The notes under the pieces: model-generated
What the model was told of the DNA's origin: nothing
The model's input: the letters and a program-made list of their open reading frames with translations, nothing else
Database searches by the model: none
NCBI RefSeq assembly: GCF_003334355.1
Contig: NZ_QOWP01000092.1
From: Escherichia coli
Lineage (GTDB): Bacteria > Pseudomonadota > Gammaproteobacteria > Enterobacterales > Enterobacteriaceae
Strand: one strand, 5' to 3'
DNA length: 1,238 bases
Program-made: the position numbers and the translations under genes
Part shown: piece by piece, positions 1,157 to 1,238 of the stretch
How positions within the stretch are numbered: position 1 is the first letter of the stretch
Layout of the letters: every line of letters starts with the position of its first letter

Positions 1157-1186
1157 AATGACTAGTCTAAAAACTAGTATTAAGAC

Positions 1187-1206
1187 TATCACTTATTTAA
1201 GTGATA
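1187..1206. promoter_or_regulatory. Perfect 9-bp-arm palindrome TATCACTTA-TT-TAAGTGATA at the inner edge of IRL; candidate operator/transposase-binding or promoter-overlapping site
   Basis: Read directly from the sequence: 1187-1195 TATCACTTA, spacer TT, 1198-1206 TAAGTGATA (exact reverse complement). It lies about 40-60 bp upstream of the insC start, in the region where IS3-family elements carry their native promoter and OrfA binding site. Confidence 0.4.
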
Positions 1207-1238
1207 TTGGTTGTCTGGAGATTCAGGGGGCCAGTCTA
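1198..1238 (-). repeat. Left terminal inverted repeat (IRL) of IS2, about 41 bp, outer end at position 1238
   Basis: Revcomp of 1198-1238 is TAGACTGGCCCCCTGAATCTCCAGACAACCAATATCACTTA. The terminal dinucleotide is 5'-TA. The exact inner boundary is approximate. Confidence 0.7.

Follow-up and report, generated by a model that had tools for sequence, protein, structure and literature searches.

The regulatory left end of IS2: an InsC operator on a perfect palindrome, a TA tip and a conserved leader

The DNA analysed here, a stretch of 1,238 nt to which we refer as the window, is IS2 read on the opposite strand, with the last base, 1238, as the left terminus of the element. We put at about 90% the probability that the interval 1161-1238 is the regulatory left end of IS2, in which three layers are superimposed. 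A perfect 9+2+9 palindrome within it is the operator of InsC (OrfA), probably in a symmetric form with two arms, and the TA at the tip of the element is better explained by its place in the -10 hexamer of Pjunc, the promoter formed at the minicircle junction, than by a causal part in the asymmetry between the two ends of IS2. The observation with which the analysis began is correct, ordinary and already known. Element coordinates (e) are counted from the left tip throughout and are given by 1239 minus the window coordinate.

The identity of the element is established by several comparisons. In E. coli PSS-12, a 1331-bp insertion sequence copy is matched by the window at 100% identity. The identical genomic copy (L001), 1331 bp long, interrupts ymgC and is flanked by a 5-bp target duplication, ATGAA, which identifies window base 1238 as the true left terminus. 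The right inverted repeat (IRR) of this copy lies outside the window and ends ...AAATCCA, that is, in CA-3'. Its length, its 41-bp IRR with CA-3' and its 5-bp duplication are those of IS2, and so are the features of the left inverted repeat (IRL; 1197-1238, e1-42, - strand), which is 42 bp long, has a TA terminus and, when aligned to the IRR of the identical genomic copy, differs from it at positions 2, 5 and 7 and by one extra bp. The start of the - strand, TAGACTGGCCCCCTGAATCTCCAGACAACCAATATCACTTAA, agrees in every letter with the 42-bp IRL printed in PMC3299598, which is bracketed there within the L79 substrate; the whole of that footprinting substrate (L79, PMC3299598) is the same as window 1181-1238 (e1-58). 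Sequence identity, the IRL match and the NCBIfam cutoffs for IS2 proteins thus bear out the original prediction that this is the left end of IS2. In the published accounts of that end (PMID 8107136, PMID 11737634, PMID 14729714, PMC3299598), the element is the same one, with e1-58 identical, and the docking site, extended -10, TA-3' tip and IRR differences described for IS2 were all found here.

K-12 IS2 is 95.8% identical to the window as a whole. It shows no differences over 1161-1238 (e1-78), and its sole difference within the first 94 nt, G vs A at e88 (window 1151), falls between the Shine-Dalgarno sequence and the ATG, outside the features of the palindrome and terminus. The divergence of about 4% over the rest of the element marks it as a common IS2 variant distinct from the K-12 type. 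Similar sequence is present in 4883 of 5426 complete E. coli genomes, and the 94-nt left end alone occurs in 21,683 places, nearly all of them at an identity of at least 95%. Copies of IS2 with InsC identities of 99-100% also turned up on tiny contigs in the assemblies of Lamprocystis purpurea DSM 4197 (a 1543-bp contig) and of a Lachnospiraceae MAG, for which contamination with E. coli looks more likely than native copies.

Both genes of the element are represented in the window. The insC gene (orfA; 782-1147, - strand) encodes a 121-aa HTH repressor that matches NCBIfam NF006928, 'IS2 repressor TnpA', over its full length at 276.4 bits (cutoff 229) and Pfam HTH_Tnp_1 with E = 5e-19. A Shine-Dalgarno sequence, GGAG, can be read 5 nt before its ATG, at 1153-1156 (e83-86, - strand). 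The orfB (insD) frame (3-842, - strand; open frame e397-1236) is clipped by the start of the window, and its product, the C terminus of which lies outside, scores 640.8 bits with NCBIfam NF006918, 'IS2 transposase TnpB' (cutoff 597). At 824-830 (e409-415, - strand), an A6G programmed -1 frameshift window, AAAAAAG, joins the IS2 DDE transposase part to orfA, as is characteristic of the IS2 group, and a programmed frameshift is recorded in the PGAP annotation of identical copies. A heptad pattern, L73-I80-L87-N94-V101, can be read off the InsC sequence. This heptad region reportedly mediates multimerisation, as Lei and Hu are said to have found in 1997, and the same is said of IS911 OrfA.

The palindrome occupies 1187-1206 (e33-52) and reads TATCACTTA/TT/TAAGTGATA, with arms at 1187-1195 and 1198-1206, exactly as originally predicted. 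It is beyond chance: it is the longest perfect palindrome of the window, and of 1000 dinucleotide shuffles of the window 2.1% contained a best arm of at least 9, a figure that falls to 0.3% when the last 100 nt are shuffled. The IRL contributes the left arm (e33-41, TATCACTTA), which is its innermost conserved part, element III. The IRR carries this element as well, reading ...GGGTTAAGTGATAACAG..., and the right arm (e44-52, TAAGTGATA) is an inverted third copy, two bases inside the IRL. The 9-mer TAAGTGATA is therefore found three times in IS2, in the IRL, in the inverted internal copy and in the IRR. The repeats had been placed between the IRL and the start of insC, which is not true of the left arm of the palindrome, since this lies inside the IRL. 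On the palindrome, at window 1187-1199 (+ strand), the sequence TATCACTTATTTA agrees with the IHF consensus WATCAANNNNTTR in 12 of 13 bases, a resemblance that is not significant, 31 of 200 window shuffles doing equally well.

The function of the palindrome follows from published work on IS2. The docking site of OrfA/InsA is 5'-TAAATAA-3' at e40-46 (window 1193-1199), hydroxyl-radical protection spans e39-48 (1191-1200, - strand), a stretch unchanged in the present sequence, and TGAT at bp 48-51 is the beginning of the native extended -10 promoter, PIRL (PMC3299598). The footprint was obtained with a mixture of OrfAB-GFP and OrfA, on a substrate that ended at e58 and was readable to about e50 (PMC3299598). 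The palindrome is centred on the docking sequence and on the protected bases, so that the published protection overlaps it rather than leaving it bare, and its agreement with docking site, protection and PIRL places it where the native promoter and the InsC operator had been predicted to lie. PIRL itself, TGaTAGTCT (TGATAGTCT), is found at 1183-1191 (e48-56, - strand), with the docking sequence TAAATAA directly upstream and with TAGTCT at 1183-1188 (e51-56) as its -10 hexamer. The TG of PIRL and its first TA, the first two bases of that hexamer, are contained in the right arm of the palindrome, and T51, A52, G53 and C55 of the promoter are invariant or nearly so among 63 relatives. A scan of the whole window for consensus -35/-10 promoters and terminators gave no matches; for PIRL this is expected and uninformative, since an extended -10 promoter has no -35.

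The 14-kDa protein is known to repress transcription (Hu 1994, as cited in PMC3299598), and the arrangement of the site suggests how it may do so. We infer that each arm takes one InsC monomer, with a dimer on both arms; since neither 'palindrom' nor 'dyad' occurs in the IS2 papers PMC3299598 and PMC3219604, this two-monomer model belongs to the present analysis. The inner nine bases of the IRL (TATCACTTA) are the recognition element for transposase and OrfA, carried also by the right end, and its inverted repetition two bases further in creates a 20-bp dyad suited to a dimer of InsC (OrfA) with its HTH and coiled coil. As the right arm holds the TG and first TA of PIRL, InsC bound at the dyad would exclude RNA polymerase from this weak promoter, resulting in autorepression, and the bound protein would also compete with transposase for the IRL.

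Relatives of IS2 provide a record of how the dyad has been kept. A scan for InsC, with one genome per species, gave 80 loci from Enterobacterales, Aeromonas, Burkholderiales and others, from which 63 distinct left ends of the IS2 group were aligned almost without gaps. In the register of the IS2 dyad, 71.6% of the cells in these 63 left ends are complementary, compared with 33-49% after a shift of the partner by 1-3 columns, and 36 cells are changed on both sides, compared with at most 15 after such a shift. At pair 35/51, 29 rows have C-G and 22 have T-A; at pair 37/49, A-T is found in 15 rows and T-A in 10. A search for palindromes with perfect arms misses interrupted dyads, and the profile of pairing centres is the better measure: under strict Watson-Crick pairing, e42.5-43 outranks every other centre from e11 to e70 in each of the three clades, where it forms 8.3, 6.2 and 5.0 pairs out of 10 over a background of about 2.5. 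Perfect alternative arms nevertheless exist in Aeromonas (CCTCTTAA/TTAAGAGG), Rahnella (TCTCTTAA/TTAAGAGA) and Cupriavidus (ACCTCTTA/TAAGAGGT), and there is a further perfect pair, TCACTTA/TAAGTGA. In the main Burkholderiales clade the dyad is weak, with a one-base shift (CCC..TTA / TAA..GGG).

Taken at the level of sequence, this pattern suggests that the operator site is selected as a symmetric element, the dyad being kept by compensatory changes in the arms, if weakly so in the main Burkholderiales clade. RNAalifold, applied to 25 diverse left ends (e1-115), returned no consensus structure, with 0 pairs, and in view of this lack of a cross-clade consensus RNA structure the symmetry is best read as that of a DNA site for a symmetric protein. 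Among 18 elements of the core clade, pairwise identity amounts to 0.87 and 0.94 in the arms of the palindrome, 0.96 in the -10 and 0.96 in e1-12; for comparison, the value is 0.60 at orfA third codon positions.

The tip of the element serves a second promoter. The terminal hexamer, TAGACT (1233-1238, e1-6, - strand), is the -10 of Pjunc, which lies at the very tip of the IS2 left end (PMC7780238). The + strand of the window ends ...GTCTA-3', in TA-3' where other IS3-family ends have CA-3', and the element strand accordingly begins with 5'-TA in place of the 5'-TG of the IS3 family. The TA end was thus seen correctly in the original prediction, but its contrast with a typical 5'-CA was misdrawn, the comparison being 5'-TA with 5'-TG, or TA-3' with CA-3'. 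The further suggestion that TA fits the asymmetric roles of the two ends stands in part. IRL and IRR differ at positions 2, 5 and 7 and by an extra bp at position 9, and the IRL is exclusively the recipient end in circle formation (PMC3299598; PMC3219604), but donor function is not regained when TA is replaced by CA (PMC3299598).

Pjunc needs a 17-bp spacer, which is created by the single base at the junction (PMC3299598; PMC3219604), and activity of the junction promoter has been published (Lewis 2004, as reported in papers that cite it). When the junction of L001 is rebuilt, the TGGAAA of the IRR is followed by 16 bp of IRR and one spacer bp and then by TAGACT. Junctions were rebuilt in the same manner for every complete element with ends that could be placed, many of them confirmed by 5-bp duplications. 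The best junction promoter was TGGAnn-17-TAGAyT (TAGACT/TAGATT) in 18 of 18 distinct TA-ended elements, with scores of 7-8 out of 12. The 24 TG-ended relatives have a TGGAGC-like tip and CGGnnn as their IRR hexamer; their best score was at most 6/12 in 23 elements and 7/12 in one (L071), and in 0 of 24 did the terminal hexamer act as the junction -10. In two relatives with good ends on both sides, L010 (1292 bp) and L031 (1305 bp), the element falls 26-39 bp short of the usual 1330-1336 bp, probably through internal deletions.

TA-ended elements (TAGACT/TAGATT) are those of Enterobacterales and Aeromonas, and TG-ended ones (TGGAGC) are found mainly in Burkholderiales; all right ends of the IS2 group are CA-3', and a recognisable junction promoter is seen only in the TA branch. 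The TA tip appears to be derived in the enterobacterial/Aeromonas branch and to travel with the junction promoter, a correlation that, given the small number of branches, may rest on one or two evolutionary events. In functional terms, copy-out to a minicircle joins the right end to the TAGACT of the IRL through one spacer base, so that the outward -35 of the IRR, TGGAAA, comes to lie 17 bp from TAGACT and the two form a strong transient promoter, Pjunc, to drive synthesis of the transposase for integration. The A at position 2 would make the hexamer -10-like, hence a TA-3' end instead of CA-3', and these changes, together with the extra bp at position 9, would render the IRL recipient-only in the first step.

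Parallels to both layers of control are found in other insertion sequences. The pjunc of IS911 (Ton-Hoang et al. 1997, PMC1169952; Duval-Valentin et al. 2001) resembles that of IS2 in that its -35, from IRR, and its -10, from IRL, meet only in the circle, where the junction promoter gives a burst of transposase for integration. Unlike in IS2, both ends of IS911 are CA-3' and either can be donor, and repression of a promoter by IS911 OrfA is not reported (PMC3299598); IS2 has its -10 at the very tip, which costs that end its donor activity. As far as they are described through citation in PMC3299598 (Zerbib 1990; Stalder 1990), IS1 InsA and the N-terminal fragment of IS30 are, like InsC, short proteins that share the DNA-binding domain of the transposase, bind an inverted repeat over their own promoter and repress both transcription and transposition, although they belong to different IS families and have different folds. 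In IS2, an extra inverted half-site just inside the IRL makes a symmetric operator of the transposase site.

The present analysis goes little beyond confirmation. IS2 ranks among the insertion sequences studied in most detail, and both mutagenesis and footprinting have been applied to its left end. Published descriptions give a 10-bp protected stretch and do not discuss a 20-bp dyad or its origin in a third copy (PMC3299598). What is added is that the repressor site is a true 20-bp dyad, by virtue of the inverted third copy of the transposase recognition element; that the TA tip is clade-specific, always accompanied by the geometry of the junction promoter and absent from TG-ended relatives in Burkholderiales; and that the leader block e57-82 is conserved. 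These features could guide annotation of the IS2 group.

The leader block lies between the -10 hexamer and the ribosome-binding site, at 1157-1182 (e57-82, - strand). Its pairwise identity among the 18 core-clade elements is 0.91, about equal to that of the inverted repeat itself and compared with 0.60 at third codon positions of orfA; at e27-32 and e83-91 the values are 0.57 and 0.66. The cited IS2 papers give the block no role. We raise, as a tentative possibility, that this block, which holds both copies of ACTAGT and the internal TAGACT, is an unrecognised cis-regulatory element of IS2-like elements, and it may act as an mRNA 5' stem-loop formed from the ACTAGT copies, as a site for a host factor or as a second promoter repressible by InsC.

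The short repeats within this leader were part of the starting observation and have fared less well than the palindrome. Both copies of ACTAGT are where they were said to be, at 1173-1178 (e61-66), around the expected start of PIRL transcription, and at 1161-1166 (e73-78), in the 5' untranslated region. An internal TAGACT also exists, one base away from the 1163-1168 first given, at 1164-1169 (e70-75, - strand), and it is conserved within the IS2 core clade only; like the ACTAGT pair, it lies within the leader, downstream of the -10 and ahead of the Shine-Dalgarno GGAG. The reverse complement of TAGACT reported on the + strand at 1182-1187 is absent, the sequence there being AAGACT, which is neither TAGACT nor its reverse complement. 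AGACTA at 1183-1188 of the + strand, TAGTCT on the - strand, is a same-strand near-copy of TAGACT (5/6), and it is the -10 hexamer of PIRL.

Tests of single hexamers make these recurrences look rare, but the last 100 nt contain 2 distinct 6-mers in direct repeat, where 1.17 would be expected (P = 0.32), and the recurrences are within chance. Those that remain are proposed to be -10-like or AT-rich coincidences inside the conserved 5' leader. No co-variation between the internal and the terminal hexamer was found across clades, terminal and internal being TAGATT and CAGTAC in Aeromonas and TGGAGC and TTGACT in the TG clade. The first ACTAGT copy is replaced by ACTATG or ACTGTG in other clades; A73, C74 and T75 in the second are invariant or nearly so in all of them. 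A comparison with the IS2 reference had been suggested as the means of telling which repeats are conserved: the left end is the same as that of K-12 up to e78, and among relatives the dyad is kept but the hexamer copies are clade-limited. The repeats were offered as candidate determinants of protein binding, which is upheld for the palindrome by published protection and is not supported for the hexamers, given their chance-level recurrence and lack of co-variation.

It is accordingly unlikely, in our estimation, that the internal TAGACT and the ACTAGT copies are extra specific protein sites, such as a second operator or a subterminal site for transposase or a host factor. Such sites would fit the identity of e57-82 far above that of neutral sites in the core clade (0.91 vs 0.60), the invariance or near-invariance of ACT at e73-75 and CT at e62-63 in all clades, and the palindrome at e51-76, which has 71.6% pairing, compared with 29-56% when slid, and one compensatory pair. 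However, the internal hexamer is independent of the terminal one in the Aeromonas and TG clades, neither type of hexamer resembles the HTH half-site TATCACTTA, the published L79 substrate stops at e58 and still forms full complexes (PMC3299598), repeated 6-mers are no more numerous in the last 100 nt than chance predicts (P = 0.32), and the dyad centred on e63.5 peaks, under strict Watson-Crick pairing, only in the core clade. The structure in question is a 26-bp imperfect palindrome, TAGTCTTAATACTAGTTTTTAGACTA, at window 1163-1188 (e51-76), which extends from the -10 of PIRL into the leader and has TAGTCT (+, 1163-1168) and AGACTA (+, 1183-1188) as its outer arms; one of its pairs flips from T-A to A-T between clades (25 vs 24 rows). 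It was considered as a second dyad, which gains apparent support when G-U pairs are allowed, and was set aside on its restriction to the core clade under strict complementarity.

We consider it very improbable that a second inward promoter uses the internal TAGACT (e70-75) as its -10 and GTGATA (e47-52), in the right arm of the operator, as its -35, an arrangement in which InsC would repress two promoters together. As read from the sequence, the two hexamers match at 4/6 each and are separated by a 17-bp spacer, and all three same-strand TAGNCT hexamers fall in the last 76 nt, two of them being known -10 elements. The score of 8/12 is nevertheless under the threshold of the scan, which reported nothing, a start at about e82 would leave almost no leader ahead of the Shine-Dalgarno sequence, the Aeromonas-type and TG clades retain neither hexamer, and the cited IS2 literature contains no description of such a promoter.

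Least probable is that the palindrome and the ACTAGT pair act as RNA hairpins, whether as a stabilising 5' stem-loop or as a translation block on read-through or Pjunc transcripts: the isolated stem e33-52 (-6.3 kcal/mol, z = -5.8 vs shuffles), a 7-bp stem of e61-67 with e72-78 (-5.3 kcal/mol, z = -3.8 vs shuffles), the e1-139 transcript (z = -2.3) and the e61-78 hairpin that RNAalifold returns on core-clade sequences are in its favour, but the PIRL transcript should begin near e61-64 and hence be without the e33-52 palindrome, the weak, AT-rich stems have no T-run after them and the terminator scan is empty, there are 0 consensus pairs across clades, the e61-78 stem is invariant in the core clade and so provides no covariation in support of a hairpin, and the palindrome is already accounted for by published protein protection.

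Some further pairing can be recognised around the leader. TCTCCA in the IRL (1216-1221, e18-23) is complementary to TGGAGA over the Shine-Dalgarno sequence (1152-1157, e82-87), a pairing that could keep read-through transcripts from being translated; the fold predicted for the long transcript does not include it. A hairpin is predicted at 1134-1169 (e70-105), in which CAU (e79-81) pairs with the AUG of insC and AGAC with the GUCU of codons 3-4, with the Shine-Dalgarno sequence in the loop, and this is a weak fold (-8.7 kcal/mol, z = -1.4). In the TG-clade elements L034-L082, alignment columns 71-73 contain an in-frame codon, TTG in some elements and ATG in others, about 21 nt upstream of the codon that aligns with the IS2 start, which suggests that OrfA of the TG-ended relatives has a longer N terminus and that their leader is possibly very short or absent.
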